A DNA stretch of 39,813 nucleotides from Omnitrophica bacterium RIFOXYB12_FULL_50_7 (GTDB taxonomy: Bacteria > Omnitrophota > Omnitrophia > Omnitrophales > Aquincolibacteriaceae). Shown here in pieces: positions 2,717 to 22,452 of the stretch. The notes beneath the pieces are model-generated. The model ran no database searches and was not told where the DNA came from. It saw nothing but the letters and a program-made list of their open reading frames with translations. The first letter of the stretch is position 1, and every line of letters starts with the position of its first letter. Made by a program: the position numbers and the translations under genes. The stretch spans positions 1-39,813 of the forward strand of contig MHFU01000026.1 in the NCBI GenBank assembly GCA_001804345.1, given 5' to 3'.

Positions 2717-2732
2717 TCAGGAGGCAGAGCGT

Positions 2733-3333: not shown

Positions 3334-3374
3334 GTTGTCGTTCGTTCACCGATCGACCAACAAAGGAATCTAAA

Positions 3375-3752: not shown

Positions 3753-3830
3753 AAGCATTCGCACAACCCCTTTCTCGTTTCCCAGAAGTTTTTAAAACAA
3801 AACAGCAGTTTCCGTTTTTCCCGCAATGAG

Positions 3831-3836
3831 TATAAT
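3831..3836 (+). promoter_or_regulatory. Candidate -10 box (TATAAT), duplicated copy
   Basis: Same GCAATGAGTATAAT block as at 3320-3333. Confidence 0.4.
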
Positions 3837-3916
3837 ACCGGCATTTGTTCACCGATCAGCCCACTTAGGAATTTTAAAATGAAAAAAACAAGCCTATACA
3901 GGAAAGACGGCAAAGC

Positions 3917-4255: not shown

Positions 4256-4382
4256 AATTATCCTCCCCCCTTTTTTCAGAGAAGGATTTTTTGGCGATTG
4301 ATAAATGTTCCTGAAAAGTTCTTGGGTATAGCGCCATCGTTTTGCGGGATTTCTTTAAAGAAGATGAAAAAATATACCGAAC

Positions 4383-5528: not shown

Positions 5529-5532
5529 GTTG

Positions 5533-5582
5533 GAAGGGGAAAGGCTGAATTATTTTATAATTCCGCCTGTCCCCTTTATTTT
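5533..5582 (+). terminator. Hairpin of the GGGGACAGGC family followed by a U-rich tail; likely gltA terminator
   Basis: AAGGGGAAAGGC (5534-5545) pairs with GCCTGTCCCCTT (5565-5576). The loop holds an inner stem GAATTAT/ATAATTC. TTTATTTT follows. Confidence 0.6.
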
Positions 5583-5628
5583 CAAATCAGGTTGCGTTTC
5601 TTAAAGCGCCTCATTATCATGATGAACC

Positions 5629-6990
5629 ATGACCGCGAATCTTGATTACGCATACGATCAATACCTGAAGGCCAAAGAATCCCAGGCCGTTTCTGCCATC
5701 TTCAAGTTCAGGGAAAAACTCAAAACTCCCGCGTTCGCGTACGGGCGTTTCACGGTCCCGGCTTTCTACAAAGCTTATTTTGTCACGTCCAAGCAGCAGC
5801 ATCTCCTGAAACGCGCGGCCTCTTCTTTTTCCCAGATCCTTAACAAGACAGCGCGTCTTTACTTCGAGGAAGCTCAGATGAGGTCCCACTTTCGCCTCTC
5901 TTCCGAAGCCGAAGAGCTCGTGAAGATCGATCCGGGCTATTCGCAGCATGTCGTCTTCAGCCGTTTCGACGCGCTTCTGGAGGGGGAGAGTCTGAAGCTT
6001 TTGGAGTTCAATTGCGATGCCCCGGCCGGCGCCGCTTACACCGACCAACTGGAGTCTGCGTTTCTTTCCGAAGAGCTGGTCTGGCCCTTTGCCGAGGAAC
6101 ATCATTTGGTTGCCAGTGAGCGCGTTCAAAGTATTCTTTCAACGCTGCTTTCGGTCTATGAAGAGTTTGGTGGCTATGAAACACCTCAGATCGCGATCGT
6201 GGACTGGCGGCATGCGAGGACCGCCCCGGAATTTGAGCACATGAAAAACCACTTCGAGTCCAAGGGTTACAAGACCACGATCGCTGATCCACGCGAACTT
6301 CAGTACAAGGGCGGCAAACTTTATCACAAAGGTTTTCGCGTGCACCTGGTCTACCGGCGCGTAATCTTTGATGAGCTGTTAGAACGGCTTGATGAAGTTC
6401 AGGACCTGCTGCGTGCTTACAAGGACAAGGCCGTCTGTGTGGTCAACCCTTTGCGTTCGAGGCTCGCCTCAAGCAAGTCGATCTTCTCGTTTTTGACCAC
6501 CCCGGAGTTCGACCGTTTTTTCACAGAGAACGAAAACGAGATGAAGCGTCAACACCTTCCGTGGACGCGTTGTCTTTCTGATGCTGAGGATTTCTATGGC
6601 CACCGGAAGGTCTTTCTGATCGATTTTCTTAAAGATGAGAAAGACACTCTTGTTCTGAAACCTTCGGGATCAAGCCACGGCGCTCGCCAGGTTCACATCG
6701 GACGGGAGACGCCGGACGGCGACTGGAACGCGGTGGTGGACAAAGCACTTAAGGAAGGGGATTGGGTGATCCAGGAGCAGGTTTCGGTTCCGGTGATGAC
6801 CGTCCCTGACGTTGTGAACCAGAAGCTGGACTACATTTACAAAAAATATAATTTCAACATGCTAGCCTTTGGGGGAAAATACGCCGGAGGTTTTGTTCGT
6901 TTGAGCGATGAGAGCGTAATCAATGTGGCGACAGGAGGGGGCCTTATGCCGGCTATTTGGACGGATACTCCCCCGGAAGGAAACGCATAA
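5629..6990 (+). CDS. ATP-grasp superfamily protein (circularly permuted ATP-grasp / glutathionylspermidine synthase-like)
   Basis: 453 aa. The segment LLEFNCDAPAGAAYTD and the overall layout recall circularly permuted type-2 ATP-grasp proteins. The call rests on memory of the family only. Confidence 0.5.
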   Translation: MTANLDYAYDQYLKAKESQAVSAIFKFREKLKTPAFAYGRFTVPAFYKAYFVTSKQQHLLKRAASSFSQILNKTARLYFEEAQMRSHFRLSSEAEELVKIDPGYSQHVVFSRFDALLEGESLKLLEFNCDAPAGAAYTDQLESAFLSEELVWPFAEEHHLVASERVQSILSTLLSVYEEFGGYETPQIAIVDWRHARTAPEFEHMKNHFESKGYKTTIADPRELQYKGGKLYHKGFRVHLVYRRVIFDELLERLDEVQDLLRAYKDKAVCVVNPLRSRLASSKSIFSFLTTPEFDRFFTENENEMKRQHLPWTRCLSDAEDFYGHRKVFLIDFLKDEKDTLVLKPSGSSHGARQVHIGRETPDGDWNAVVDKALKEGDWVIQEQVSVPVMTVPDVVNQKLDYIYKKYNFNMLAFGGKYAGGFVRLSDESVINVATGGGLMPAIWTDTPPEGNA

Positions 6991-7007
6991 AAAGGCGAAG
7001 CCTTTTT
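6989..7007 (+). terminator. Intrinsic terminator
   Basis: AAAGGC-GAA-GCCTTT stem-loop followed by a T-run, directly after the stop at 6988-6990. Confidence 0.6.
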
Positions 7008-7014
7008 ATGAACA

Positions 7015-7150
7015 GCCAAATTACAAGATCCAAGAACCAGATAGGCTCCAATCACCTAAAGAAAAAAGGACGTTTTTTCTTTTGTTTGAGATTTTTAAAT
7101 TGATTATTGGAAATTGTTTGGAGCTGGGTTCTTGGAAATTGGATCTTGGC
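7015..7150. repeat. Long imperfect inverted repeat (~136 nt) built from CCAAG/CTTGG words
   Basis: Left arm 7015-7056 pairs with right arm 7108-7150; the best run is 7029-7038 with 7127-7136. Inner hairpin GAAAAAA-GGACG-TTTTTTC at 7061-7079. Confidence 0.55.
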
Positions 7151-7204
7151 GTTTGATTTTAAGCAGAAGAGGGAGTATTCTCATTCGGTAAGGAGAATGA
7201 ATCT

Positions 7205-7651
7205 GTGACCAGAAAAAAAAGAAGGATTTTTACTCTCCAGGAAGCCGACGCTTTATTGCCGGAGCTTGAAAAACGCCTGAAACTTCTCCGGACCAAAAAA
7301 GAGGCCTACAGCCGTACCCACGATCTTCTTTTCATGCATGAGCTTGTTTGCACGGCCGAGCGAACGAACGGAGTCTTGGAAGAGAAAGATGATCTGGAGG
7401 ACGGTATTCACGCGCTCGAAGGAGCAATCGAAGACCTGGCCAAAGATGTTGAAACGATCTTTGCGATGGGCTGCCTTCTTCGGAACATCGAAAAGGGCCG
7501 CGTCGAATTCTTCGGCAAGCATGAGGGCCGGGAGGTTTATTTTTCCTGGCAACTTGGCGAACCCCACATTTCTCATTACCGCCCGTTTGAGGGGAAAGTC
7601 CATGAACGCGTTCCTCTGTCCGGGAAGCCCGCAACGAAAAGCCAGAAGTAA
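7205..7651 (+). CDS. DUF2203 family protein
   Basis: GTG start 9 nt after AAGGAG. The N-terminus RIFTLQEADALLPELEKRL is typical of DUF2203. Confidence 0.7.
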   Translation: MTRKKRRIFTLQEADALLPELEKRLKLLRTKKEAYSRTHDLLFMHELVCTAERTNGVLEEKDDLEDGIHALEGAIEDLAKDVETIFAMGCLLRNIEKGRVEFFGKHEGREVYFSWQLGEPHISHYRPFEGKVHERVPLSGKPATKSQK

Positions 7652-7721
7652 AAACCTCCGGGAAGCACTTGCTGGGAAGCCCTCACTTATAATTCTTTGT
7701 GAGAAAAATATTCGGAAAGAA

Positions 7722-9494
7722 TCAAGCGGGAAAGAAAACGGAAAAGCGGGAGCCCTGGCCGGGGGTGCTTTGGCAGGAGGCGTGGCCGTCATGCGCTTCC
7801 ATGATGTGCTTAACGATGGCCAGACCCAGCCCCGTTCCTCCAAGCTCCTTTGAACGCGCTTTATCCACACGAAAGAACCGTTCAAAAATACGGCCTTGGG
7901 TTCCTTCGGGAATGCCGATCCCTGTATCCTCGACTGTGATCGTGATACCCTCCGGTTTTTGATCTGCTGACAGAACGATCTTGCCTTCCGGTTTGTTGAA
8001 TTTGATTGCGTTGTCGAAGAGGTTCACAAAGACCTGATGGACCTTGTCCTTGTCGCCTGGGACGAGCAGAGGTTTCCCGGGAATGCGGTTCTCGACTATG
8101 AGTTTATTCTTTTCGACCCGGCCCTTGAATTGTTCCAGGACAAAGGACAGTTCGGAGGCAAGATCGATCCGGTCTTTTTTCATGAAATCTATTTTTTGCT
8201 CGATTTCGCCGATCGTTAAAATGTCTTCCACCAAACGGCCCAGCCGATCGGTTTCTTCCGCGATGATTTTCAGGAACCGCTCGCCTGCGGGAGGGTCTTT
8301 AAAAGCGCCGCCTAAAAGAGTTTCGACAAATCCTTTAATTGCGGTCAGCGGCGTGCGAAGCTCATGGGAAACATGGGTCACGAATTCCTTGCGGACATTT
8401 TCGAGACGGCGGAGTTCCGTCATATCATGAAAGACCAGGATGCCTTGGATGTCACGGGCGTGTTCCTTCAGGATCACCACACTTAAGCGGAGAGTCTTTC
8501 TTATTTCTCCAGAGATCTGGATCTCCTCAGAGGTGGTCTTCTGCTCCTTGAAAGCGTGATCCACAATCCTTTCGATTTGAGGATGCCTTGTGACCTCGAT
8601 CAGGCTTTTGCCATGGATATCGGAAGCAAGATATCCAAAAATCTTTTCTGCCATGGGGTTCATAATGACGATCTGTTTATGACGGTCAACGGCGATCACC
8701 CCTTCGTTCATATGATTCAAAATGACAGAGATCTTACCTTTTTCGCTTTCAAGGTCTTTGATCCTCGAACGAAGGGTTGCGGCCATTTGGTTCATGGTGT
8801 CCGCGAGCATTTTGAGTTCGTCACGGCCGTCCATCAAGATCTTCTCGGACCAGTCTTCCCGGGCGTAGCGTTCGGCCACAGAGGTAATACGGCGGATACG
8901 CTTGGTGAGATGGTTGCTGAAGAACATGCCGGCCATGAGGACGATCAGGATGCCGAGGAGTGCCGTGAACATAATGGGTCGGCGGACCGAGGCTAGGATC
9001 TCATCAACCCGCGTGATCGGCATCGCTGTGCGCACAACGCCAAGGACCTTTACGCGTTCCAGGATTGGGACCGCAATATAAAGCATCCGGGTTTCTAAGG
9101 TCATACTGTAGCGGATGCTCATGCCCGCTTCTTTTTTCAGGGCTGCCGCAACCTCGGGTCGCAACGCGTGATTTTCCATTTTGGAAAGTTGCTCCAGGTT
9201 TTCGCTCGAATCGGCGAGTACCGCGCCCTCGGGGTCAACGATCGTGACACGAACATCTGTTCCGGCGGCAATGGTTTTAATCTCTTTTTGGAGGCGTTTG
9301 TGATCACCTAAAAGGGGGATTGCCAGTTCGCGGATAAGGACGGATTGGCGGGTCAGGGACCTCTGGAGCTCTTGGAGGTCCCGCTTTTGAAGGAAATGGG
9401 AAAGTGTCCAATCAGTCACAAGCAGGACAAGGATGAAAGTGATGCTGTACAGCACGAGGAGACGTTTGGCAAAACCGAACTTTGGAAATTCCAT
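7722..9494 (-). CDS. phoR: Sensor histidine kinase, PhoR-like (two TM, periplasmic domain, HAMP, PAS, HisKA, HATPase)
   Basis: H-box VSHELRTPLTAIKG; N/G boxes FDNAIKF and DTGIGIP...GGTGLGLAIVK. ATG 9494 lies 1 nt after the phoB stop. Sits in the pst locus. Confidence 0.85.
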   Translation of the reverse strand: MEFPKFGFAKRLLVLYSITFILVLLVTDWTLSHFLQKRDLQELQRSLTRQSVLIRELAIPLLGDHKRLQKEIKTIAAGTDVRVTIVDPEGAVLADSSENLEQLSKMENHALRPEVAAALKKEAGMSIRYSMTLETRMLYIAVPILERVKVLGVVRTAMPITRVDEILASVRRPIMFTALLGILIVLMAGMFFSNHLTKRIRRITSVAERYAREDWSEKILMDGRDELKMLADTMNQMAATLRSRIKDLESEKGKISVILNHMNEGVIAVDRHKQIVIMNPMAEKIFGYLASDIHGKSLIEVTRHPQIERIVDHAFKEQKTTSEEIQISGEIRKTLRLSVVILKEHARDIQGILVFHDMTELRRLENVRKEFVTHVSHELRTPLTAIKGFVETLLGGAFKDPPAGERFLKIIAEETDRLGRLVEDILTIGEIEQKIDFMKKDRIDLASELSFVLEQFKGRVEKNKLIVENRIPGKPLLVPGDKDKVHQVFVNLFDNAIKFNKPEGKIVLSADQKPEGITITVEDTGIGIPEGTQGRIFERFFRVDKARSKELGGTGLGLAIVKHIMEAHDGHASCQSTPGQGSRFSVFFPA

Positions 9495-9495
9495 T

Positions 9496-10185
9496 TTACT
9501 CTCCGTCGAAACGGTAGCCAACACTTTTGACCGTGACGATCCGTTCGGCTTCCTTTCCGAGCTTTTTCCGTAATTGTCCGATGTGCATGTCGACGGTGCG
9601 TGTTTCGATATTCATGAAATTCTCATAACCCCAGACCTTTGATAAAAGAACCTCGCGGGTGAGCACTCTTCTCTTGGAATTCATGAGGAGGCCCAAGAGT
9701 TCAAACTCTTTAGCGGTGATCTCCACGGGTTTCCCCTTTAAACGCAGCTCGTGCTTTGTCACATCCAGCTCAATCGTTCCGGACTTCAAGATCTCTTCCG
9801 CGGGCTTTCCTTGAGAGCGCCTAAGGACGGCTTTGATGCGGGCTACGAGCTCCCGGGGGCTGAAGGGTTTCGTGATGTAATCATCGGCGCCGAGTTCGAG
9901 ACCCACAACCTTGTCAGATTCTGTGCCTTTGGCTGTAAGCATGATGATGGGGATTAGGCGTGTTTTTTCGTTCTGCTTGAGGGTTTGGCAAATCTCAAGG
10001 CCGCTCATTTCGGGAAGCATGAGGTCGAGGAGCACAAGCGCCGGTCTTTCTTTAAGGGCCATTTCAAGACCTGCGGGGCCTTTGCTTGCGATGAGGACGC
10101 GAAAACCTTCCTGCTCGAGGTTGTATTTTACAAGCTCGGCAATGTTCTTTTCGTCTTCAATGAAGAGGATCGTTTGATTTGCCAT
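9496..10185 (-). CDS. phoB: OmpR/PhoB-family response regulator
   Basis: Receiver domain (LLDLMLPEMSG, acceptor Asp) plus a winged-helix C-terminus (TVDMHIGQLRKKL...VGYRF). Adjacent to phoR and the pst genes. Confidence 0.88.
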   Translation of the reverse strand: MANQTILFIEDEKNIAELVKYNLEQEGFRVLIASKGPAGLEMALKERPALVLLDLMLPEMSGLEICQTLKQNEKTRLIPIIMLTAKGTESDKVVGLELGADDYITKPFSPRELVARIKAVLRRSQGKPAEEILKSGTIELDVTKHELRLKGKPVEITAKEFELLGLLMNSKRRVLTREVLLSKVWGYENFMNIETRTVDMHIGQLRKKLGKEAERIVTVKSVGYRFDGE

Positions 10186-10263: not shown

Positions 10264-10351
10264 TTTCCATCACGAGGACCTGACAAGAGTTTTCTATACT
10301 TCCAGCATGATAACAAAACGAATTCCATTCAACTGGAGGAGAAACAAGCTT

Positions 10352-11878
10352 ATGAAACACTACCCTTTCACAAAATTGGCGAGCATTTTTGTCGTATGCT
10401 TTTTGACTTTCACGTCCTCGGTGTTCGCGAGTGATGCTGAACTCATGGCCTTGGTCCAGAACATGCAGAAGCAGATGAACGAGCTGCAGACGATTGTCAT
10501 GGCGCAGAAAGCCGAGCTCCAGGCGCTCAAAACGAGCGGTGGTGGAAAGATAGCCATGGTTCCTAGCAGTGTGGAAGCCATTCCTCCGATGAGTGAAGCG
10601 GAATTTACCCAGCGTTTGAGTGATTCGACCGGCGGCGCCAACAAATGGCTCAAGGATCTCAAGCTCAGCGGTGACATCCGTCTGAGGTACGAAGCATTTG
10701 GTTTACATGGAAATCCTAATTCTAATCCTACGTCGACTACGGCTGGTTATCAGGACGCCAGGAATCGCTTTCGGATCCGTCTGCGTTATGGATTTGAAAA
10801 AACGTTCAATCCTGAAATGAAGGTCGGTTTTTCAATGGCCACCGGTGACAAAACCACCAATGGTTATAACACGGACCCTATTTCCACTAATCAGAGCATG
10901 ACCAATGATTTCAACTTTAAGAATATCTGGGTTGAGAAGGCCTACGCGACTTACACGCCTGAATGGGCGAAGGTAGGTCTTGGCGCAGGTATGGAAATCT
11001 CGGGGTTCGAGGTCACTGCCGGGAAATTCAACAATCCTTTTGAAAAAGGATCCACCGATATGATTTGGGACCGGGATCTGAAACCGGAAGGGGTCTATGA
11101 AAAGGTCGATCTCAAGCTTCTGGATACCGAGAACTTCGATCTGAAGGCCTACCTTCTTTCGATGCAGTCCGTTCTTATGGAAACGGGCAATTCCTCCACG
11201 GCTACGTCCAACAAAGATGCAAACCTTTTCGCGTATCAGGCCGGTTTGAATCCTGTTTTTTATATTCCGGGGATGGAGAGACCGGTGGATGCACTTTCAG
11301 CGATTTCAGTCTACAACTACCAAAATTATGATAATAACAGCAATTGGCAAATTGCTAGCGTGAGCCAGGCTAATGGCAACCCTTCCTACAATACGAACCA
11401 ATTGTCGGCAAAGGGTTTTAATATTCTGAGTTTCTATCAGGAGGTTAATTTTTATCCTCACGGGATTCCCGTGAAGCCGTTCGCGGAATTCGCGCGTAAC
11501 ATGAGCAATACGTCCGGGTTTTCATCCGCAACTCAAAATAACTCGATGCAAGGCGGCGCGGATGCCTGGTCGTTGGGCCTTACGCTCGGGAAACTCGTAA
11601 AAAAGAGAGATTGGCAGGGGAGCTATCAATACAAGTATATCGGCGCGAACTCCGTGGTTGGCGCTTTTAACGATAGCGACTTTGGAGGTTATAACTACGG
11701 TGGCACCGATAAGGCCGGGAGCGTCATCAAGTTGGGGTATAACCTTACGGATTATCTGACTTTGAACGGCGCGTGCTTCCTGGTGCGGCCGATCACTCAG
11801 AGGGATACCACGGCCAACGGTATGCAGGTGGACCAGTCGGTTCGCCGGTTTCAAATCGATATGACGTACAAGTTTTAA
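10352..11878 (+). CDS. Outer-membrane porin-like beta-barrel with an N-terminal coiled coil (putative phosphate-regulated porin)
   Basis: GGAGGA SD before ATG 10352. Signal peptide ...SSVFA/SD, then a heptad-like segment ELMALVQNMQKQMNELQ. Alternating beta-strand-like sequence. C-terminal ...MTYKF aromatic OMP signature. A Pho box lies upstream. Confidence 0.65.
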   Translation: MKHYPFTKLASIFVVCFLTFTSSVFASDAELMALVQNMQKQMNELQTIVMAQKAELQALKTSGGGKIAMVPSSVEAIPPMSEAEFTQRLSDSTGGANKWLKDLKLSGDIRLRYEAFGLHGNPNSNPTSTTAGYQDARNRFRIRLRYGFEKTFNPEMKVGFSMATGDKTTNGYNTDPISTNQSMTNDFNFKNIWVEKAYATYTPEWAKVGLGAGMEISGFEVTAGKFNNPFEKGSTDMIWDRDLKPEGVYEKVDLKLLDTENFDLKAYLLSMQSVLMETGNSSTATSNKDANLFAYQAGLNPVFYIPGMERPVDALSAISVYNYQNYDNNSNWQIASVSQANGNPSYNTNQLSAKGFNILSFYQEVNFYPHGIPVKPFAEFARNMSNTSGFSSATQNNSMQGGADAWSLGLTLGKLVKKRDWQGSYQYKYIGANSVVGAFNDSDFGGYNYGGTDKAGSVIKLGYNLTDYLTLNGACFLVRPITQRDTTANGMQVDQSVRRFQIDMTYKF

Positions 11879-11954: not shown

Positions 11955-12824
11955 ATGCAGACCAAGCGGTTGTTTAAAGGGATGATGATGGCATTCGGCA
12001 TCTTTTGCGTCGGGATCTTGCCAGTCCATGCGAAGGAAAAGATGATCCAGATCAAAGGGTCGGACACGATCGTGAATTTGAGTCAGGCGTGGGCTGAGGA
12101 ATTTATGACGGAAAAACCTAATGTCAGTATTGCGGTGACGGGCGGTGGTTCCGGTACCGGGATCGCGGCGTTGATCAATGGGACTACCGATATCGCCAAT
12201 TCGAGCCGCAAGATCAAGAAGAAGGAGCTCGATGACGCGCAGAAGGGCGGGTACTATCCGGAAGAATTCAAAGTGGCAGTCGACGCGCTCGCGGTGATTG
12301 TGAACCCGGCGAACTCCGTCAAGGAACTGACGATCGACCAACTCTCCGGTATTTTTACTGGCAAAATCACAAACTGGAACGAAGTCGGTGGAAAGAACGA
12401 GAAGATCCTGGTTCTCTCTCGCGACCGGAATTCCGGAACGCACATGTATTTCCTGGAGCAAGTGTTGAGGAAAGGAAATGAAAAGGGTCCGGAGCAGTTC
12501 GCGCCGTCGGTCTTGATGTTGCCGTCCTCGGAGGCGATCATTAATGAAACCTCGACAAGCGAAAGCGCCATTGGTTACGACGGCCTTGGTTACGTGTCCG
12601 CGAAGGTCAAAACCCTCGCGGTCGCGAAGAAAAACGGAGACGCCTTCGTACTGCCTTCCAAAGAGACTGCGATGAATAAGAGCTATCCGATCTGGCGTTT
12701 CCTCTACATGTATACTGGCTTCAAACCCAGGGGAGAGATCAAGGCGTTCATTGATTTTGTGTTGAGCGGAAAAGGCCAGAAGATCGTGGACGCGATGGAC
12801 TTTGTCCCGTTGGGCGAGAAGTAG
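11955..12824 (+). CDS. pstS: Phosphate ABC transporter substrate-binding protein PstS
   Basis: Signal peptide. GSDT...VTGGGSGTGIAALINGTTDIANSSR motif of the PstS/PBP-like family. Lies in the pst operon. Confidence 0.92.
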   Translation: MQTKRLFKGMMMAFGIFCVGILPVHAKEKMIQIKGSDTIVNLSQAWAEEFMTEKPNVSIAVTGGGSGTGIAALINGTTDIANSSRKIKKKELDDAQKGGYYPEEFKVAVDALAVIVNPANSVKELTIDQLSGIFTGKITNWNEVGGKNEKILVLSRDRNSGTHMYFLEQVLRKGNEKGPEQFAPSVLMLPSSEAIINETSTSESAIGYDGLGYVSAKVKTLAVAKKNGDAFVLPSKETAMNKSYPIWRFLYMYTGFKPRGEIKAFIDFVLSGKGQKIVDAMDFVPLGEK

Positions 12825-12949: not shown

Positions 12950-13855
12950 TTGAAGTCAGGCAATTTACGGGATGACAAGGACCAATTTGTGAGAAAAATC
13001 ATGGAATTTTTCATTGAAAAAGCCATTCTCCTGAATGGTTTTGCGTGTATCCTCTTTGTCATTCTGATCTTTTTCTTTTTGGCCAAAGACGGGCTTGCGC
13101 TTTTCAAATTCGTTACGATCCAAGACTTTCTCTTCGGAACTTTATGGAACCCGCTCGCCGAGCCGCCCCAATTTGGGATATTGCCTCTTTTCCTCGGGTC
13201 CCTGATCGTGACGCTCGGAGCGACGATCATTTCTGTACCACTTGGAATGGCCTGCGCGATCTTCATCGGGGAGATCGCGCCTCGCTGGATGCGCGAAACT
13301 TTGAAAGCGGGCGTCGAACTTCTTGCCGCAATTCCGAGCATTGTGATCGGTTTTATCGGAATGACCATGCTGGGACCCGTTGTAAAAAACCTGTTTCATC
13401 TCCCGACAGGTCTCACCGCGCTCACGGGGGCTCTTGCGCTCGCGTTTATGGCCATTCCCACGATTGTAAGCATTATGGAAGATGCGATCAGTTCGGTTCC
13501 ACGGATCTACAAGGAAGGCTCCCTGGCGCTGGGGGCCACTCATTGGCAAACGATCTATCGGGTTATTATTCCGGCGGCTTCCTCAGGGATCGTGGCTGCA
13601 GTTATGCTTGGGATCGGGCGCGTCATTGGTGAGACTATGGCTGTCATGATGTTGACAGGCAATGCTTCGGTTATTCCCAAAACGATCCTAGCGCCCGTGA
13701 GAACAATGACTGCCACCATCGCTGCCGAAATGGGCGAGACGGTGCGCGGGAGCGAACACTATTTCGCGCTTTTCGCGCTAGGACTGGTTCTTTTTGTGAT
13801 CACTTTTTTCATTAACCTTGTCGCGGATGCGGCCCTTCACCGGAAACAAAAATGA
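12950..13855 (+). CDS. pstC: Phosphate ABC transporter permease PstC
   Basis: Six-TM permease with the EAA-like loop region. Synteny supports the call. Start is uncertain (TTG 12950 or ATG 13001). Confidence 0.9.
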   Translation: MKSGNLRDDKDQFVRKIMEFFIEKAILLNGFACILFVILIFFFLAKDGLALFKFVTIQDFLFGTLWNPLAEPPQFGILPLFLGSLIVTLGATIISVPLGMACAIFIGEIAPRWMRETLKAGVELLAAIPSIVIGFIGMTMLGPVVKNLFHLPTGLTALTGALALAFMAIPTIVSIMEDAISSVPRIYKEGSLALGATHWQTIYRVIIPAASSGIVAAVMLGIGRVIGETMAVMMLTGNASVIPKTILAPVRTMTATIAAEMGETVRGSEHYFALFALGLVLFVITFFINLVADAALHRKQK

Positions 13856-14727
13856 AAATCCGCGCGAAGTCGCACTTAAAAATATCCACACAAACCCAAC
13901 AAAAGATCGCCTTCACGTTCCTCGGGATCGCATCGATCCTTGTGATCGTCCCCGTGATCGTGATTTTTGTGATTCTGATCCAGAAGGGTCTTCCCGCGAT
14001 CAACTGGCAATTTCTAACGGCTATGCCGCGCATGGGGATGCGCGCCGGAGGGATTTTTCCGGCTATTATGGGGACTCTGTATCTGGTGTCTGGCACCATC
14101 GTGGTGGCGTTGCCTCTGGGCGTTTTGGCCGCGATCTATCTTGTAGAATATGCACGTCAGAATTTTCTGACCCGCATGATCGAAGTCGCCATCGTCAATC
14201 TCGCCGGCGTGCCCTCGGTTGTTTACGGGCTTTTCGGAATGGGACTTTTTGTGATCTATCTTAAGCTTGGCGTCTCGATCATCGCGGGGGCACTCACGCT
14301 TGCCATCATGATCCTCCCGGTTATCATCACTTCTTCGAAGGAGGCACTTCAAAGCGTGCCACGCTCGTTCCGTGAAGCGAGTCTCGCACTGGGTGTCAGT
14401 AAATGGCAAACCATTTGCTGCGTGGTCCTACCCAATGCGCTTCCCGGGATCCTGACGGGGACCATTCTTGGGATCAGCCGCGCGGCGGGGGAAACAGCCC
14501 CCATTCTTTTCACGGTCGCGGCGTTTTATCTGCCGAGGCTTCCGAAATCAATTTTTGATCAGTGTATGGCACTGCCTTATCATCTTTATGTGCTCTCTAC
14601 GCAAGTACCGAACGTAAATCCCAAGATCCAATACGGGACGGCACTAGTGCTCGTAGGTATAGTCTTTTTACTAAACCTTGTTGCCATTATTGTCCGTTCT
14701 CATATCCGGAGCAAAAAACAATGGTAG
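13852..14727 (+). CDS. pstA: Phosphate ABC transporter permease PstA
   Basis: ATGA overlap with the pstC stop. Permease motif EASLALGVSKWQT...AAGETAP. Confidence 0.9.
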   Translation: MKIRAKSHLKISTQTQQKIAFTFLGIASILVIVPVIVIFVILIQKGLPAINWQFLTAMPRMGMRAGGIFPAIMGTLYLVSGTIVVALPLGVLAAIYLVEYARQNFLTRMIEVAIVNLAGVPSVVYGLFGMGLFVIYLKLGVSIIAGALTLAIMILPVIITSSKEALQSVPRSFREASLALGVSKWQTICCVVLPNALPGILTGTILGISRAAGETAPILFTVAAFYLPRLPKSIFDQCMALPYHLYVLSTQVPNVNPKIQYGTALVLVGIVFLLNLVAIIVRSHIRSKKQW

Positions 14728-15473
14728 AGAAGATCATTATTGAAAATCTCTGTATCGATTATGGGGGTGTTCACGCTCTCAAGAACGTGAGCCTTTCCGT
14801 CAAAGAGCATGAGATTCTTGGCATCATCGGACCCGCCAACAGCGGCAAAACTTCTTTTCTTAGGGCTCTCAACCGCTTGAACGATCTGGATCTGTCTTCG
14901 CATCTGAGCGGTTCGATCTACTTGAACGGGAAGGAGATCAACCGCGAAATGGACGCTGAAGAAGTTCGCAAGAAAGTGACCATGGTTTTTGCGCTCCCGA
15001 TCCCGCTGCCTATGTCGATCTTTGATAATGTTGCTTATGGTCCAAGGCGCCACGGCACCAAGGATAGGAAAAGGCTTGCGGAGATCGTGGAAAAAAGTCT
15101 CAAGGCAGGTTTTTTATGGGACGAGGTCAAAGACCGGCTGTCCTCTTCAGCCATGAAACTTTCCGGAGGTCAACAGCAGCGTCTGTGTATCGCCCGTACG
15201 CTGGCGGTGGAACCGGAAGTTATTTTGTATGACGAACCCTGCTCGGGGCTGGATCCTATTTCTACCGCGAAGGTCGAAGATGCTATGCGTGAACTTAAAA
15301 GTCGTTACACCCAGATCCTTGTGACCAATAACGTAAAGCAAGCCGCGCGGGTGGGAGACCGGGTCGCTTTTTTTCTGATGGGTGAACTCGTCGAGATCGA
15401 TGAAGCTAACCGGATTTTTACCGCGCCCAAAGATAAACGGACCAATGATTATCTGACGGGAAGGTTTGGGTGA
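14721..15473 (+). CDS. pstB: Divergent PstB-like ATPase (PstB1): intact LSGGQ, degenerate Q-loop and H-loop
   Basis: ATG 14721 overlaps the pstA stop (ATGGTAG). Walker A GPANSGKT, signature [13 protein letters not shown], Walker B ILYDEP. MVFA replaces MVFQ and VTNN replaces VTHN. C-terminal YLTGRFG. Confidence 0.85.
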
Positions 15474-15477
15474 TACG

Positions 15478-16230
15478 ATGAGCAAGATCGAGACAAGAGG
15501 ACTCAGCCTTTTTTATGGAAATTTTCAGGCCTTGATCGATGTCAATGTCCAGATCAAAGAAAAAATGATCACAGCTTTGATTGGACCCTCGGGATGCGGG
15601 AAATCCACGTTTCTCAGAACACTGAATCGCATGAACGACCTAATCGATGGGATCCGGATCACCGGAGAAGTCCTGATCGACGGCGAGAACATTTATGGGA
15701 ACCGGACGGATCTTGTCCTGCTACGGAAAAAGGTCGGGATGGTGTTCCAGCGCCCCAATTCTTTTCCCCTCTCAGTTTTTGACAATGTTGCGTATGGACC
15801 CCGGATACACGGAAGCAAAAATAAGGCCGAGCTCGAAGATATCGTTGAAGAATCCCTGCGCCATGTCGAGTTGTGGGATATCCTTAAGGACAAACTAGAC
15901 CATTCCGCGCTCAATCTCTCCCTGGAACAGCAGCAGCGCCTCTGCATTGCGAGGCTTGTGGCTGTGACGCCTGAGGTTGTACTGATGGACGAACCTTGCT
16001 CGGCCCTGGATCCTGTCGCGACTTCGAAGGTCGAAGAGCTCATGGCGGAGCTTAAAAAACAATATACGATCTTGATCGTGACTCATAATATGCAACAGGC
16101 GGCGCGCGTTTCTGACCGGACGGGTTTCATGCTGCTTGGAAAGTTGTTGGAATATGGTGAGACTCGCCAGGTTTTTACAAATCCAAAAGAAAAGAAGACA
16201 GAAGAATATATTACCGGAAGATACGGCTAA
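15478..16230 (+). CDS. pstB: PstB ATPase (PstB2): canonical Walker A, Q-loop and H-loop, degenerate signature motif
   Basis: [22 protein letters not shown] and [11 protein letters not shown] are all canonical. The signature reads LSLEQQQRL instead of [10 protein letters not shown]-terminal YITGRYG. Confidence 0.9.
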
Positions 16231-16237
16231 AAAACGA

Positions 16238-16316
16238 TTAGGGCATAGGGTTTAGGGTATAGAAAAGTTTCTTGTTTTGAAACAGGTTTTTCTATCCCCT
16301 ATGGCCTATCCCCTAA
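16238..16316 (+). repeat. Long imperfect hairpin (TAGGG / CCCTA words) between pstB2 and phoU
   Basis: 16238-16266 pairs with 16288-16316 in runs of 6, 5, 5 and 8 bp. Apical stem CTTGTT/AACAGG. The phoU SD AGGAGG (16322-16327) follows immediately. Confidence 0.6.
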
Positions 16317-16331: not shown

Positions 16332-16994
16332 ATGGAAAGACATTTTGCCGAGGAATTAAAGACGCTCAAACAAAAATTGTTCCAGATGGGGTTGTTGGTC
16401 GAAGGAGCGATCGAAAAATCATTTGAGGCTCTTTCAGAACGCTCTGAGGATCGCGTCAAATCCGTCTTCGAGGATGAAGAGACCATCAACTCACTTGAGA
16501 TCGAGATCGATGAAAAAGGTCATACTCTGTTTGCATTAGTCCAACCCATGGCCGGGGATCTCCGACTTCTGACGATGATCCTCAAGATCAATACGGATCT
16601 TGAGCGGATGGGAGATCATGCGGTCAATATTGCGGAAAAAAGCCAATATCTTTTCGGTCAGCCGCCGCTCAAGCTGGATATTCCGATGGCGGACATGGCG
16701 CGAGCCACGCAGAAGATGGTCCGGGATGCGCTTGATTGTTTCATGAACGAAAATGTGGAGCTTGCGCGGAAGGTCCTGCAAAGCGACGACAAGATCGATG
16801 ACTACAATGATAGAATCTATCAGGACATGGCTGCGCTTATGGAAAAGGAGCCTTCGTCCGTTCACCGCGCTCTATGCTATGTGATGATCAGTCGTAACCT
16901 CGAACGTATCGCCGATCTCGCGAACAACATTGCCGAAGACACGATCTACCTGAAGCAGGGCAAGGAAGTCCGCCACCACTTCGAGACAACTTGA
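16332..16994 (+). CDS. phoU: Phosphate signalling complex protein PhoU
   Basis: 220 aa. Two PhoU repeats with the E(D)xxERxxD-type motifs (DLERMGDHAVNIAE and NLERIADLANNIAE). Confidence 0.92.
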   Translation: MERHFAEELKTLKQKLFQMGLLVEGAIEKSFEALSERSEDRVKSVFEDEETINSLEIEIDEKGHTLFALVQPMAGDLRLLTMILKINTDLERMGDHAVNIAEKSQYLFGQPPLKLDIPMADMARATQKMVRDALDCFMNENVELARKVLQSDDKIDDYNDRIYQDMAALMEKEPSSVHRALCYVMISRNLERIADLANNIAEDTIYLKQGKEVRHHFETT

Positions 16995-16995: not shown

Positions 16996-17033
16996 CCCGC
17001 GCCCGAGGGCGTTCCCTGCGGGCGTTCTTTTTT
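16996..17033 (+). terminator. Candidate intrinsic terminator after phoU
   Basis: CCCGC (16996-17000) pairs with GCGGG (17018-17022). The duplicated GGGCGTTC word and a TTCTTTTTT tail follow. Confidence 0.5.
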
Positions 17034-17165: not shown

Positions 17166-17798
17166 ATGCCCTTTGGATTCCTTCTTCCGAAAGAAACCAG
17201 TTTCTTCGATTATTTTGACAAACAGGCGGATTATGCTGTCCAGGCTGCCACTCATTTTGTAAAAATGGTGGCCGATTACAAGGTCGATGAAGTTGAGGTC
17301 GGGATCATGAAAGAGATCGAACATCTCGGAGATGAAGTGATCCGTCAGATTTTAGACCATCTTAACAGTACTTTTATTACGCCCTTCGACCGGGAGGATA
17401 TTCACGACTTGGCCAAAAAGATGGATGATATTGTCGATATGCTTTACACCATCACTAAACGCCTCCGCGTCTATAAGATTCTGAGCATGGAGCGAAATCT
17501 CACGGAATTTGCCCGAGTGATCGAAATGTCCGTCAAAGGTGTTTCTCAAGCTGTCAAAGGTCTTCGGGACATGAAGAACAGCAAGAACGTCCTTAAGGCC
17601 TGTATCGAAGTGAACAACCTTGAGAATCTCGGGGACAGGATGCGTGACGACATGCTCGGGGAACTTTTTGAAAAATACGCCAAAGATCCCGTTGCGATGA
17701 TCAAGTGGAAGGATATCTATCAGGACGCGGAAACGGTTCTGGACGTGTGCGAGGACGTCGTCCATGTGGTCGAATCTATTCTTGTGAAACACGCCTGA
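17166..17798 (+). CDS. DUF47 (PhoU-like) phosphate transport accessory protein
   Basis: N-terminus FGFLLPKETSFFDYFDKQA... and length fit DUF47/TIGR00153-type proteins, which are usually paired with PiT. Confidence 0.85.
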   Translation: MPFGFLLPKETSFFDYFDKQADYAVQAATHFVKMVADYKVDEVEVGIMKEIEHLGDEVIRQILDHLNSTFITPFDREDIHDLAKKMDDIVDMLYTITKRLRVYKILSMERNLTEFARVIEMSVKGVSQAVKGLRDMKNSKNVLKACIEVNNLENLGDRMRDDMLGELFEKYAKDPVAMIKWKDIYQDAETVLDVCEDVVHVVESILVKHA

Positions 17799-17818
17799 TT
17801 TTTTTGTAAAGGAGCATC

Positions 17819-18811
17819 ATGACCGCTTGGATCCTTTTTCTTGTCCTGCTGGCGCTTACATTTGACTTTCTGAACGGGTTCCACGATTCCGCGAATTCGA
17901 TTGCGACGGTTGTTTCCACCCGCGTTCTTTCCCCGCAGCATGCGGTGCTCTGGGCCGCTTTCTTCAACTTTATCGCGTTCCTCTTTTTTGGCCTTCATGT
18001 GGCCAACACGATCGGGAAGGGAATCATTGATATCAACATTGTGGATAGCCAAATCATCTTTGGGGCGTTGATGGGTGCTTGTGCGTGGAATATCATTACC
18101 TGGTATTTTGGACTCCCAACCAGTTCTTCTCACGCGCTGATTGGTGGGTTGGTCGGGTCGGCGCTTGTGAAAGCCGGTACAGGATCTCTGGTGTGGAGCG
18201 GGATCATCAAAACAATTGCTTTCATTCTGATCTCACCCGTGGTTGGACTTTTTCTGGGCGTCATTTATGGCGTGATCGTCCACTGGCTGGCCCGGAAGAG
18301 TTCGCCGGCCGGAGTCGATCACTGGTTCAGAAAAGGCCAGCTTGTTTCCGCAGCCCTCTACAGCTTGGGCCATGGCGGGAATGACGCCCAAAAGACCATG
18401 GGGATTATCGCAAGCCTTCTTTTCAGCGCTGGGCTCCTTGGTAAAGAATTCCACATCCCTTTTTGGATCGTGATCACGTGCCATAGTGCGATTGCTCTTG
18501 GGACGATGTCCGGAGGGTGGCGTATCGTGAAAACCATGGGTCAAAAAGTCGCGAAGCTCCGTCCTGTGGACGGTTTTTGCGCGGAATCGGGAGCTGCCAC
18601 AAGCTTGTTTATAGCTTCGGCTTTTGGTATCCCGGTCAGTACGACGCATACGATCACCGGCGCCATCATGGGGGTGGGTTCCTTGAAACGCATGAGCGCG
18701 GTGCGGTGGGGTGTTGCGGGGAATATCGTGTGGGCGTGGATCATTACGATCCCGTGTTCTGCAGCGATCTCGGCCATCTCTTATGCCGTGGCGAAATATT
18801 TTTTAAAATAG
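17819..18811 (+). CDS. pit: Inorganic phosphate transporter, PiT (PHO4) family
   Basis: GFHDSANSIATVVSTRVL near the N-terminus and the repeated GGNDAQKTMG motif. Polytopic membrane protein. Confidence 0.9.
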   Translation: MTAWILFLVLLALTFDFLNGFHDSANSIATVVSTRVLSPQHAVLWAAFFNFIAFLFFGLHVANTIGKGIIDINIVDSQIIFGALMGACAWNIITWYFGLPTSSSHALIGGLVGSALVKAGTGSLVWSGIIKTIAFILISPVVGLFLGVIYGVIVHWLARKSSPAGVDHWFRKGQLVSAALYSLGHGGNDAQKTMGIIASLLFSAGLLGKEFHIPFWIVITCHSAIALGTMSGGWRIVKTMGQKVAKLRPVDGFCAESGAATSLFIASAFGIPVSTTHTITGAIMGVGSLKRMSAVRWGVAGNIVWAWIITIPCSAAISAISYAVAKYFLK

Positions 18812-18961: not shown

Positions 18962-20284
18962 CTATGGTTTTCCCATTTCCAGCGAAGCGTCTACGGAAGG
19001 GTCGAGGGTGGTTTGAGCGTCTAATGCGGAAGATGAGGCGGACGGAGGTTTATCATCTATGGCGAGATCTGCATCCGCGCTATCAAGCGTGGCTGTCTTA
19101 GTTGAAGTTTTCGCTGGTATGTCCTGAGGGCTTTCTGGCGCTGATTTCACTTCCGGCGAAGGTTTTGGTGAAGCGGCTTTTTCCGGAACTTTATTTTTTA
19201 TAGCTGGAGGATGTTCCGCCTCGTAGGGCAGGTTTAAACCTGCCCTACGACCAGCGTTCGAGTCCTTTTCAGAATTTGTTGAAGGGGAAACGAATTTTTC
19301 TCCAAGTTTGAGCCGGCGCGTGTTAAATCGCGGGTCTTTTTCATCCAGGAAAACTTCTTTGGTTCCAGGCGGGACTCTCAGGATAAATTCCAGCGGATCG
19401 ATCGTGTCCAGGGCTTTCACCCGGGTGAAAAAAATCGCACTGCCTTTTTGTGTCTCGGGAGACGTGATCGTGATCTTCTTTGGAAAAACAATAGATTTGT
19501 AGGAACCGACTTGACCCCGAAACTCACGAAAATCATAGCGCTGGATCTCCGTGACCGGTTGTTCTTTAGAGTTATAAAAGAGCTCCCCGCGTACATCGCC
19601 CTCAGGTGTCAGGTATAACTTTCTTTCCAAGATTCTTTCGTTGTCATTCCGGCCATAAACGTCCAGGCTTGTGATCGCGGAATTGGTCCGTTCGACCCTG
19701 GTACGACGGGGGTCTACGGCCATCGGCTTGAGCGCCCGGTAAAGATCGCGGGCCTTGAGATGGCTTTCAATGTCCGGAGAATCCTCCAGATCAAAAATGG
19801 ATCCGTGATAGACCGTGTTTTGAGCTGGGAGATAAAGGTCAAAGCGGCGGTCAAGCGTGCGGAACACGAACATTAGCTCCTGCCGGGCGTCCACGCAGGT
19901 GAGGAACATGCGCTCATCGAGACGTTGGTACAAAAGTTCGCCGCCGCACAAGGCGTTTGGGTCGCCGGCTTTTGCGAAAAAGAGAAGTACGTCCGCGCGG
20001 ATTGCAATCCAGCGGTAATGACGAGATTCGATCTTTTGGAGAATACTTTCCAGTTCTGTGTTCGGGGCTGTTTCTGCCCAAACGAAAGAACTGAAACCTA
20101 AAAGGGAGAAGAGGAGGACGGCCCAAAAAATGGAACGCGTCGGGCGGTCCCAATAACTATCAATTGACGCAAAGCGGCACCTGATTCTCTTTAATCTAAA
20201 AACAAAGATAATCAGTGCCGTCCAAGCCACCATGAATAAAAAGAAAAAAAGATTTGGACGGCAATTAAGACCTGGGCGGTCCAT
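18962..20284 (-). CDS. Hypothetical envelope protein with an N-terminal hydrophobic anchor and a Pro/Ser/Ala-rich C-terminal tail
   Basis: 440-aa ORF starting 1 nt after the upstream gene stop, which suggests translational coupling. Hydrophobic segment IFWAVLLFSLLGFSSFVWA. No family recognised with confidence. Confidence 0.6.
   Translation of the reverse strand: MDRPGLNCRPNLFFFLFMVAWTALIIFVFRLKRIRCRFASIDSYWDRPTRSIFWAVLLFSLLGFSSFVWAETAPNTELESILQKIESRHYRWIAIRADVLLFFAKAGDPNALCGGELLYQRLDERMFLTCVDARQELMFVFRTLDRRFDLYLPAQNTVYHGSIFDLEDSPDIESHLKARDLYRALKPMAVDPRRTRVERTNSAITSLDVYGRNDNERILERKLYLTPEGDVRGELFYNSKEQPVTEIQRYDFREFRGQVGSYKSIVFPKKITITSPETQKGSAIFFTRVKALDTIDPLEFILRVPPGTKEVFLDEKDPRFNTRRLKLGEKFVSPSTNSEKDSNAGRRAGLNLPYEAEHPPAIKNKVPEKAASPKPSPEVKSAPESPQDIPAKTSTKTATLDSADADLAIDDKPPSASSSALDAQTTLDPSVDASLEMGKP
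19221..19250. repeat. 30-bp perfect palindrome inside the hypothetical gene
   Basis: TCGTAGGGCAGGTTT|AAACCTGCCCTACGA has no mismatch and no spacer. It encodes GRRAGLNLPYE in the low-complexity tail. Confidence 0.9.
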
Positions 20285-20881
20285 TTAATCTCGCGAAGTT
20301 TCAGCGAGGATTTTTTTCGTGTGGAGGATTCGCTGAATGGCCGTTGCGTGCGTGCCGACAAGCAGAACCAGGAGGACGAATTTCAGAAGCGGCGAAACAA
20401 GAGTCCCTGCGATCAAAAGGAGGATCCTTTCCGATCTTCCGAATATGCCGACACCGCAATTCTTAATGAAGTTTTCGGCTCGCGCCTTAGTGTAACTGAT
20501 CACAACAGAACCGAGGAGGATGCCAAGCGTAACAAAGAACCAGAAGATATCACCGCTTCGGATGAAATAGGTCGCCAACCCCGCGAACACGAAAAAATCC
20601 GAGTAGCGGTCTACGACCGAATCGAGAAAAGCCCCGAAGGAGCTTGTTTTTCCGGTCGTGCGTGCCAGAAGCCCATCCAGCAGATCGGCTGCTCCGGCGA
20701 CGAAAAGCATGATACCTCCCAGGAAAAGATATCCCTTCGCATAGAGGATCCCAGTTAGGAAGCTCAAGGCAGCTCCCGCGAGCGTCAGCTGAGTCGGGGA
20801 AATGCCTTGCGCCTTTAGGGAAGAGACGATGGCGTTTGCAATCGGTTCGACTTTGGGATAGAGAGTTTCGCGTAGGGACAT
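20285..20881 (-). CDS. CDP-alcohol phosphatidyltransferase family protein (candidate phosphatidylinositol-phosphate synthase)
   Basis: Exact family motif Dx2DGx2ARx8Gx3Dx3D in DLLDGLLARTTGKTSSFGAFLDSVVDRYSD. Lies downstream of the inositol-3-phosphate synthase gene. Confidence 0.85.
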   Translation of the reverse strand: MSLRETLYPKVEPIANAIVSSLKAQGISPTQLTLAGAALSFLTGILYAKGYLFLGGIMLFVAGAADLLDGLLARTTGKTSSFGAFLDSVVDRYSDFFVFAGLATYFIRSGDIFWFFVTLGILLGSVVISYTKARAENFIKNCGVGIFGRSERILLLIAGTLVSPLLKFVLLVLLVGTHATAIQRILHTKKILAETSRD

Positions 20882-20927
20882 GGCCGTTTACTCCTGTTTA
20901 AAAAATATACAGCGAATCGTTTCCTTC

Positions 20928-20966
20928 TTGGAGGACAGGCATTAAGTGATGGTCTGTCCCTTAAGA
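20928..20966 (-). repeat. Intercistronic hairpin, GGACAGGC family member
   Basis: GGACAG (20933-20938) pairs with CTGTCC (20954-20959); flanking CTT/AAG also pair. Lies between the ino1 stop and the CDP-alcohol transferase start. Confidence 0.5.
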
Positions 20967-20977
20967 ATATAACGGGA

Positions 20978-22093
20978 TTACCGGGGGCAGGTGCCCTGGA
21001 TGAATTTTCGGACAAGTTCCTTGGCTTCGTAATCCACGATTTGTTTAGGTGGATGCTTCATGGTGTAAGCCGACATGGAGATGAGTGGTCCACCAATCTT
21101 GCGGTCCCGAGCGATCTTGCAGGCCCGGATCGCGTCGATCGAACAGCCTGCGCTATTGGGCGAGTCCTCGACAGAGAGACGCATTTCAGCCGTGACGGGA
21201 AAACCGCCGAAACCGCGGCCTTCAATGCGCATGTAGCAAACCTTGTTATCATTCTGCCAGGGAACATAATCCGAAGGACCGATGTGGATATTATCCTCAT
21301 CGAGAGGCACATCGAGTTGGCTCTGGACCGCCGAGGTCTTGGAAATCTTTTTTGATTCCAGACGCGCACGATTGAGCATGTTGAGGAAGTCGGTGTTTCC
21401 GCCGGTGTTCAGCTGGTACGTGCGGTCGATCTTGACGCCGCGGTCCATAAAAAGTTTTGCAAGCGTGCGGTGCGTAACGGTGGCGCCGATCTGTGCCTTG
21501 ATATCATCACCGACGCAGGGGATACGCTTCGCCTCAAAGCGTTTCGCCCAGGCCGGATTGGAGACGATAAAAACTGGCATGCAATTGATGAGGCTTATGC
21601 CCGTTTTAAGGCAGGCTTCGGCGTAGAACTCTGTGGCCTTTTGGGAGCCGACCGGGAGGTAATTGATGAGAATCTCCGCGCCGCTCTCCTTAAGGACCTT
21701 TTCCACATTACAGGGTTTCTTATCGGAGGGGAGGAAGGTGCGGTCATCTTTATAGCCGGCCATATGTTCGGAAAACCCGTCCAGGATATTACCCATTTCG
21801 ACCTTGATCTTGCTTTTAGCGATCGGGCCGATGGACCAGACGCAGTTGGGCTTTGCAGCAAGCGCCACATCCAGACGTTCGCCCACTTTTCGCTTGTCGA
21901 TGTCAAAAGCCGCCACGACCTCGATCTCATGGGGGAGATAGCCGCCCATGTCATAGTTCATGAGGCCGAGATACTCAGTGGGCTTGTTTTTGCCAGGCTT
22001 TTGGTTGGCGATCACTCGATAGTATTCAAGGCCTTGGACAAGCGACGCCGCACAATTTCCGACACCCACGATAGCGATCTTGATCTTACCCAT
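20978..22093 (-). CDS. ino1: myo-Inositol-3-phosphate synthase
   Basis: Start MGKIKIAIVGVGNCAAS (Rossmann fold) with a GGAGGA SD. Motifs YQLNTGGNTDFLNM and the conserved C-terminal half match bacterial/archaeal-type MIPS. Confidence 0.9.
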   Translation of the reverse strand: MGKIKIAIVGVGNCAASLVQGLEYYRVIANQKPGKNKPTEYLGLMNYDMGGYLPHEIEVVAAFDIDKRKVGERLDVALAAKPNCVWSIGPIAKSKIKVEMGNILDGFSEHMAGYKDDRTFLPSDKKPCNVEKVLKESGAEILINYLPVGSQKATEFYAEACLKTGISLINCMPVFIVSNPAWAKRFEAKRIPCVGDDIKAQIGATVTHRTLAKLFMDRGVKIDRTYQLNTGGNTDFLNMLNRARLESKKISKTSAVQSQLDVPLDEDNIHIGPSDYVPWQNDNKVCYMRIEGRGFGGFPVTAEMRLSVEDSPNSAGCSIDAIRACKIARDRKIGGPLISMSAYTMKHPPKQIVDYEAKELVRKFIQGTCPR

Positions 22094-22452
22094 TGATTCC
22101 TCCCGTTTGATTTGCATGAAGACGATGGGATTTTTTAGACGGCAGAACATGATAGCAGCAAGCTCTCGAAAATCAAGCGAAACAAGGTGTTTCTAAGCGT
22201 TATTGGCAGCAAAGGTTACGCCTCATACGTCCGATAACCCCAAGATTCGTTTGCCCTTTGTCTAAAATTATTTTATGTTAGAATATCGCCAGATTTTTCT
22301 TTCTTTTCAAAAAAGGTAGTTGGCCTTGGCTTTCTATTGATTTTTTGATCAGGAAACCAGGACAGCCCCAATCTCATTTGTTTTGATTGATAGTGAGACC
22401 GCCCGTTTATGCATCACAAACTGTCGAATCTCTTTAAAGAAAGGTAATCTCA

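Follow-up and report, generated by a model that had tools for sequence, protein, structure and literature searches.

A 39,813-nucleotide stretch of DNA from Omnitrophica bacterium RIFOXYB12_FULL_50_7 (contig MHFU01000026.1; hereafter, the window) encodes, in tandem, two paralogous nucleotide-binding subunits of a Pst-type phosphate importer, which we refer to as PstB1 and PstB2. Each of the two proteins has lost ATP-binding cassette (ABC) motifs that the other retains. We consider it likely, with a probability of about 0.75, that pstB1 and pstB2 encode two distinct nucleotide-binding subunits of a single PstS-PstC-PstA-PstB1-PstB2 importer, in which one ATP site is at consensus and the other is degenerate. 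The pairing of PstB1-type and PstB2-type genes was found in more than 10 bacterial phyla.

Complementary motif losses in two adjacent PstB paralogues

The genes pstB1 (positions 14721 to 15473) and pstB2 (15478 to 16230) lie on the forward strand and encode proteins of 250 amino acids (aa) each that are 51% identical. PstB1 matches a database protein of Omnitrophica bacterium RIFOXYB12_FULL_50_7 at 100% identity. The start of pstB2 is most likely the ATG at 15478, 4 nucleotides (nt) past the pstB1 stop; the open reading frame (ORF) listing gave a TTG at 15466. For both proteins, the best profile was TIGR00972 (PstB), an NCBIfam equivalog with a curated cut-off of 343.2 bits. PstB2 scored 394.2 bits, and PstB1 scored 333.3 bits, just under the cut-off, though TIGR00972 was by far its top match. 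Escherichia coli PstB (Protein Data Bank [PDB] entry 9k3x) aligned to PstB1 over nearly its full length (E=5e-70) and has the consensus residue at each altered position; this full-length match to a solved protein settles the PstB fold.

No full consensus ABC motif set is present within one polypeptide in either paralogue, PstB1 lacking the Q-loop Gln and the H-loop His and PstB2 lacking the Gly-Gly of the signature. In PstB1, the signature LSGGQQQR is intact (15159 to 15182), and the Walker B/D-loop segment (15222 to 15254) retains Asp-Glu, with the D-loop changed from SALD to SGLD. Its Walker A motif reads GPANSGKTS (14829 to 14855) as opposed to the PstB-typical GPSGCGKST, with Gly-Lys-Thr retained; its Q-loop reads MVFA, with Ala for Gln (14982 to 14993), and its H-loop reads VTNN, with Asn for His (15321 to 15332). 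In PstB2, by contrast, the Walker A motif (GPSGCGKST, 15583 to 15609), the Q-loop (MVFQ, 15739 to 15750), and the H-loop (VTHN, 16078 to 16089) are all at consensus, the Walker B/D-loop segment spans 15979 to 16011, and the signature is degenerate, reading LSLEQQQR with Leu-Glu for Gly-Gly (15916 to 15939). A first-pass annotation, made from the letters of the window alone, had described the signature, Q-loop, and H-loop of both proteins and the retained Walker A of PstB2, and had proposed alignment to the PstB profile and to E. coli PstB as a check; the motif readings hold, and this comparison came out as a heterodimer would predict. The Walker A and D-loop changes of PstB1 and its retained Walker B Glu are additions to that description.

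Recurrence of the pair, selection, and the two composite sites

We scanned for the pair in two independent ways, using PstB1 as a query against one genome per GTDB species, which returned 80 loci, and PstB2 as a query against metagenome contigs; pooling the genome and metagenome scans gave 115 pstB1-pstB2 pairs. In all 80 loci from the PstB1-query scan, the matched gene lacked the Q-loop Gln and had the H-loop Asn, the SGGQ core, and the Walker B Asp-Glu, with a signature of LSGGQQQR in 79 loci and ISGGQQQR in one. A PstB2-type gene with a degenerate signature came next in 73 of the 80, at a median intergenic distance of 9 nt, and the contig ended in 6 of the remaining 7; in the last (locus L016), an 873-aa methyltransferase-like ORF follows the PstB1-type gene (positions 4001 to 7662 of that locus), pointing to a rearranged locus, an inserted segment, or a chimeric contig. 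The 73 downstream genes kept the H-loop His (VTHN or VTHS) and had signatures such as LSLEQ, LSGEQ, LPLDQ, LPLYQ, LPMDQ, LTDEQ, and similar variants. Reciprocally, where upstream DNA was present in the PstB2-query scan, a PstB1-type gene preceded 39 of 39 PstBs with a degenerate signature and 0 of 27 canonical PstBs. The survey of tandem pstB genes that the first-pass annotation had called for thus finds the complementary pattern repeatedly, again as a heterodimer would predict.

In every one of the 115 pairs, the upstream gene retains the signature core and the downstream gene retains the catalytic motifs. The PstB1 Q-loop position is occupied by Ala in 112 pairs, Ser in 2, and Pro in 1, and the H-loop position is Asn throughout (115/115). 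At the second Gly position of the PstB2 signature, Glu is found in 83 pairs, Asp in 27, and Tyr in 5; we take this position to be that of the CFTR G551D mutation. The PstB2 Walker A motif GPSGCGKST is identical in 104 of the 115 pairs, with a single-position change in the other 11, and the gene order, pstB1 followed by pstB2, is kept in every pair. The pattern recurs across the 115 pairs and is far above chance.

Protein databases gave the same picture for PstB1. Three lists of the top 120 protein matches together cover at least 330 different clusters at 90% identity, and nearly all of these show PstB1-type motifs where they were readable by pattern matching; one of the matches listed retains the His. 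Of 150 PstB relatives, each standing for one cluster at 50% identity, 112 have the canonical Q/SGGQ/H residues, so the substitutions of PstB1 and PstB2 are not common in ordinary PstB; this search used PstB1 as a query and serves as background only, as the strongly conserved PstB falls into few clusters. The first-pass annotation had expected its reading to fail if such substitutions were widespread in functional homodimeric PstB proteins, and neither this background nor the 27 canonical PstBs of the reciprocal comparison points that way.

The 80 loci come from Omnitrophota, Elusimicrobiota, Planctomycetota, Verrucomicrobiota (including Kiritimatiellia and Lentisphaeria), Desantisbacteria, Margulisiibacteriota, Hydrogenedentota, Bacteroidota (including Ignavibacteria), Spirochaetota, Acidobacteriota (including Aminicenantes), WOR-3, and others. 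The organisms named in the PstB1-type database matches are metagenome-assembled genomes (MAGs) or unclassified "bacterium" records, and no cultured host of a PstB1-type protein appeared among the listed matches to the PstB1, "Marinifilum" MAG, and Pontiellaceae MAG queries. One contig labelled as a Marinifilum sp. MAG (DYDG01000073.1) encodes a PstB1-type protein 88 to 91% identical to its 13 best matches, of which those with names are Desantisbacteria or unclassified "bacterium"; no Bacteroidota name occurs among the matches listed, and the contig is probably mis-binned. In another locus (L021, positions 274 to 6342), a canonical pstB is directly followed by a second, complete set consisting of three pstS-, pstC-, and pstA-sized ORFs, pstB1, pstB2, and a phoU-sized ORF, the intervening ORFs being assigned from size and position alone. 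Three more loci (L002, L012, and L046) have a similar layout that is cut at the contig edge. Because this layout occurs in some Omnitrophota genomes, canonical and asymmetric Pst systems can coexist in tandem.

Both genes are evidently maintained. When the window was compared with its 15 closest relatives at unsaturated synonymous divergence (dS), the ratio of nonsynonymous to synonymous substitution rates (dN/dS) was 0.035 to 0.076 for pstB1 and 0.047 to 0.071 for pstB2, values that mark both genes, on the evidence of their sequences, as functional and under purifying selection. A neighbor-joining tree built without the motif columns placed 85 PstB1-type proteins in one clade and 74 PstB2-type proteins in another, among 82 canonical PstB representatives.

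ABC subunits dimerize head to tail, and each composite site is made of the P-loop side of one subunit and the signature of the other (PMC7756269). Relative to canonical PstB, the PstB1-specific changes comprise S-to-A, a variable fourth position, C-to-S, and S-to-T in Walker A; Q-to-A in the Q-loop, plus F-to-L five residues on; A-to-G in the D-loop; one L-to-A; and H-to-N in the H-loop. PstB2-specific changes occur only in the signature (S variable, G-to-L, and G-to-E/D/Y) and in the two residues immediately upstream. All group-specific substitutions map to what would be a single composite site, formed by the P-loop, Q-loop, and H-loop of PstB1 and the signature of PstB2. These degenerate-site elements vary among lineages, whereas the parts that would make up the consensus site (Walker A, Q-loop, and H-loop of PstB2 and the signature of PstB1) are essentially invariant. 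In motif terms, the pair would hold one consensus and one degenerate site, as first proposed from the window. The nucleotide-binding residues are largely preserved in the PstB1-type proteins of the 80 loci, with the A-loop aromatic residue in 76 and Walker A GK[TS] and Walker B DE in all 80.

We also observed co-variation, across the 115 pairs, between residue 4 of the PstB1 Walker A motif and the PstB2 signature. Doubly acidic PstB2 signatures (TEE, TDE, and SEE) were seen only where that residue is K, R, or H (8/12 versus 0/103 for other residues). N is accompanied by SLE or SGE; with G or S, the signature is mostly PLD, PMD, or PLY. This co-variation, which derives from few independent lineages, suggests that the fourth residue may touch the PstB2 signature.

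A proposed asymmetric mechanism and its alternatives

PstB1 and PstB2 would form an obligate heterodimer on PstCA. Its consensus site would combine Walker A, Walker B, the Q-loop, and the H-loop of PstB2 with the LSGGQ of PstB1, and ATP hydrolysis there would power the transport cycle. The degenerate site would be built from the P-loop side of PstB1 and the signature of PstB2, keeping the A-loop aromatic residue, the Walker A Lys-Thr, and the Walker B Asp while lacking three hydrolysis helpers (the Q-loop Gln, the H-loop His, and the signature Gly-Gly). Such a site most likely binds ATP or stays closed, with nil or slow turnover, and could act as a structural or allosteric hinge like that of heterodimeric ABC exporters. 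In a PstB2 homodimer, each site would contain an acidic or bulky residue at the position equivalent to CFTR G551D, and both sites of a PstB1 homodimer would lack Gln and His; because neither homodimer would have an intact site, the two genes are predicted to be mutually dependent.

The sequences show the motif pattern and its conservation, the strict co-occurrence and order of the genes, and purifying selection; what we infer is that the two proteins dimerize, that the degenerate site binds nucleotide, and that one ATP is hydrolyzed per cycle. Co-occurrence of the two genes is the evidence that argues for a PstB1-PstB2 heterodimer on PstCA. ATP binding at the degenerate site is suggested by the A-loop, the Walker A Lys, and the Walker B Asp, all of which are kept, and poor or absent hydrolysis there by the loss of Gln, His, and Gly-Gly. 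There are precedents for parts of this scheme: the histidine permease can work with a single intact site (Nikaido and Ames 1999, cited in PMC3971661), and the degenerate signature of Pdr5, LNVEQ, likewise contains an acidic residue (PMC7756269). The EAA coupling loops of PstA and PstC, which bear on the permease that PstB1 would dock on, differ between asymmetric loci and a taxonomically narrow set of canonical loci. A broader proposal is that this is a widespread type I binding-protein-dependent importer that runs obligatorily on one hydrolytic site, its second site, co-adapted between the PstB1 P-loop and an acidic PstB2 signature, serving as a permanent hinge or regulatory nucleotide sensor; we put this forward tentatively, at slightly less than even odds.

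Several observations weigh against the asymmetric importer. One locus, L016, is a sole real exception, in which a PstB1-type gene has no PstB2 downstream. The loci are phylogenetically non-independent samples. Bootstrap support for the PstB1-type and PstB2-type clades is modest (34% and 68%), and the clades are not sisters, a topology that would be compatible with origin by a single duplication or by two divergences. Where a canonical pstB lies nearby, as in L021, mixed assemblies are possible. PstB1 retains the catalytic Glu of Walker B, and H-to-N and H-to-Q changes in nucleotide-binding site 2 (NBS2) of MRP1 kept wild-type-like transport (PMC7756269); because of these last two points, the second site may be slow instead of dead.

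The same two points lead to the first alternative, in which both heterodimer sites hydrolyze ATP and the Gln-to-Ala, His-to-Asn, and Gly-Gly-to-Leu-Glu changes compensate mutually and tune kinetics only. The Walker A Lys and the A-loop aromatic residue are kept in PstB1 along with the catalytic Glu, NBS2 of MRP1 is functional with the H-to-N change, and the co-variation of Walker A position 4 with the PstB2 signature suggests a site that is co-adapted, not decayed. Yet three independent hydrolysis helpers are gone from one site, an acidic residue stands where the signature meets the gamma-phosphate, and that site varies among lineages while the other is essentially invariant, as in known degenerate sites; we therefore regard two active sites as unlikely. 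Slightly less probable still is that PstB1 is a catalytically silent ABC-like regulator, such as a partner of PhoU or PhoR, and not a transporter subunit, with a PstB2 homodimer driving transport in spite of its changed signature. The PstB1 score slightly under the PstB equivalog cut-off would fit this role, as would the unequal tandem PstBs of Enterococcus faecalis, of which PstB1 has an accessory role and PstB2 is required (PMC12096839); both members of that pair are fully canonical, however, and so represent a different case. In a PstB2 homodimer, moreover, Gly-Gly would be replaced at both sites by Leu-Glu, Leu-Asp, or Leu-Tyr, and in the reciprocal comparison the PstB2 signature is degenerate only beside a PstB1-type gene, whose own LSGGQ is invariant. 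Strong purifying selection also acts on PstB1, its signature included, as expected if that signature completes an active site.

It is most improbable that the substitutions stem from sequencing or assembly error or from a pseudogenized duplicate. The window does come from a metagenome-assembled genome, but neither reading frame is broken, independent assemblies show the same residues in 115 pairs, and dN/dS is about 0.04 to 0.08; recurrence of the motifs across both scans and the low dN/dS refute a reading as artefact or pseudogene.

Genomic setting, related transporters, and significance

Gene calls and Pfam matches show that the region from 7.7 to 18.8 kb of the window is a complete phosphate-acquisition cluster. 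A phoR-like histidine kinase (HisKA/HATPase_c/PAS/HAMP) and a phoB-like response regulator (Response_reg/Trans_reg_C) are placed divergently on the reverse strand (7722 to 10185); all further genes of the cluster are on the forward strand. The operon proper comprises pstS for the periplasmic phosphate-binding protein (11955 to 12824; PBP_like_2, E=2.8e-46), the permease genes pstC (12950 to 13855; BPD_transp_1 and operon position) and pstA (13852 to 14727; BPD_transp_1), pstB1, whose start overlaps the pstA stop (ATGGTAG), pstB2, and finally phoU (16332 to 16994; PhoU, E=7.8e-45), after which a terminator scan found a terminator-like hairpin (17005 to 17029). PstB1 and PstB2 are therefore both found in the pstS-pstC-pstA-pstB(-phoU) operon context.

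Other features of this region were also observed. Between phoB and pstS lies a gene for a Porin_5-family outer-membrane porin (10307 to 11878), which may be phosphate-regulated in this diderm Omnitrophota genome. The 101-nt spacer between pstB2 and phoU contains a long imperfect hairpin (16238 to 16316, forward strand) with a minimum free energy of -36.4 kcal/mol (z = -3.1 versus shuffles) that ends shortly 5' of the phoU ribosome-binding region (AGGAGG); it might set the level of phoU relative to pstB or stabilize the transcript. Directly 3' of the pst-phoU operon, genes for a PhoU_div/DUF47 protein and a PiT (PHO4) transporter (17166 to 18811) form a second phosphate system of the low-affinity type. 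On the reverse strand, a 440-aa ORF without a Pfam match is followed by genes for a CDP-alcohol phosphatidyltransferase and a myo-inositol-1-phosphate synthase (18962 to 22150), which suggests inositol-phospholipid synthesis adjoining the phosphate cluster.

The E. coli PstSCAB transporter (PDB 9k3x, 9k3y, and 9k3s; PMC12976172) shares with the window the operon order pstS-pstC-pstA-pstB-phoU and, as components of a type I importer, BPD_transp_1 permeases together with a PBP-type binding protein. It has two copies of one all-consensus PstB, however, whereas here there are two distinct subunits with different motifs lost in each. Two adjacent pstB paralogues in a pst-phoU operon are likewise known from Firmicutes, in E. 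faecalis (PMC12096839) and in Bacillus subtilis, where the complex with PstBA and PstBB was modelled as PstBA-PstBB-PstC-PstA-PstS (PMC11466899). In E. faecalis, PstB1 and PstB2 have identical canonical motifs, unlike the paralogues described here, and surplus PstB2 can substitute for PstB1 (PMC12096839), a substitution that the motif pattern predicts to be impossible for the pair in the window.

With heterodimeric ABC exporters (TM287/288, TmrAB, BmrCD, TAP1/2, CFTR, MRP1, and Pdr5; PMC7756269), the pair shares a consensus and a degenerate site with complementary changes, one degenerate signature (acidic in Pdr5 too), and retained nucleotide-binding residues. Two non-identical nucleotide-binding domains (NBDs) are encoded together, and their complementary changes lie on one composite site, as is typical of that class. 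The exporters differ in having the NBD fused to an exporter-fold membrane domain, whereas PstB1 and PstB2 are free-standing 250-aa proteins that would act on BPD_transp_1 importer permeases. The degenerate sites of the exporters, moreover, usually lack the Walker B Glu; PstB1-type proteins keep it in 80 of 80 loci and have instead lost the Gln of the Q-loop and the His of the H-loop. Exporters are said to have degenerate sites frequently (PMC3971661; PMC7756269). Among importers, the CUT2-type RbsA and NupO likewise have one degenerate ATP site of two (PMC11466899), but both of their NBDs belong to a single fused polypeptide, the Walker A Lys is absent from the degenerate site (as are, in NupO, the Asp and Glu of Walker B), and their transporter class and substrate are unlike those of Pst.

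We found no description of a degenerate PstB pair in open-access papers and bioRxiv, although it may be mentioned elsewhere. In the same literature, degenerate sites in type I importers with free-standing ATPase subunits are not discussed, and importer degenerate sites are mentioned only for fused tandem domains such as those of RbsA and NupO. This gap may be explained by the hosts, since those named are MAGs or unclassified records and no cultured strain is among them. What is probably new, as judged from the sequences, is an asymmetric and probably single-site NBD dimer in a type I binding-protein-dependent importer that is widespread in uncultured lineages.

How many ATP molecules ABC importers use per substrate, and whether hydrolysis is needed at both sites, is still debated. 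Here, evolution appears to have disabled one importer site, with the outcome kept in more than 10 phyla, so that stoichiometry, allosteric coupling, and subunit placement could be tested directly in the PstB1/PstB2 importer. Both genes are now labelled just as phosphate ABC transporter ATP-binding protein, and a dedicated pair of models would separate the types cleanly. If the broader single-site proposal is true, each subunit would have a fixed position on PstC or PstA, and PhoU signaling would have a defined docking partner. One ATP per cycle could then drive high-affinity phosphate uptake, perhaps as an energy-saving adaptation; the carriers are uncultured, and many appear to be anaerobes from low-energy habitats.

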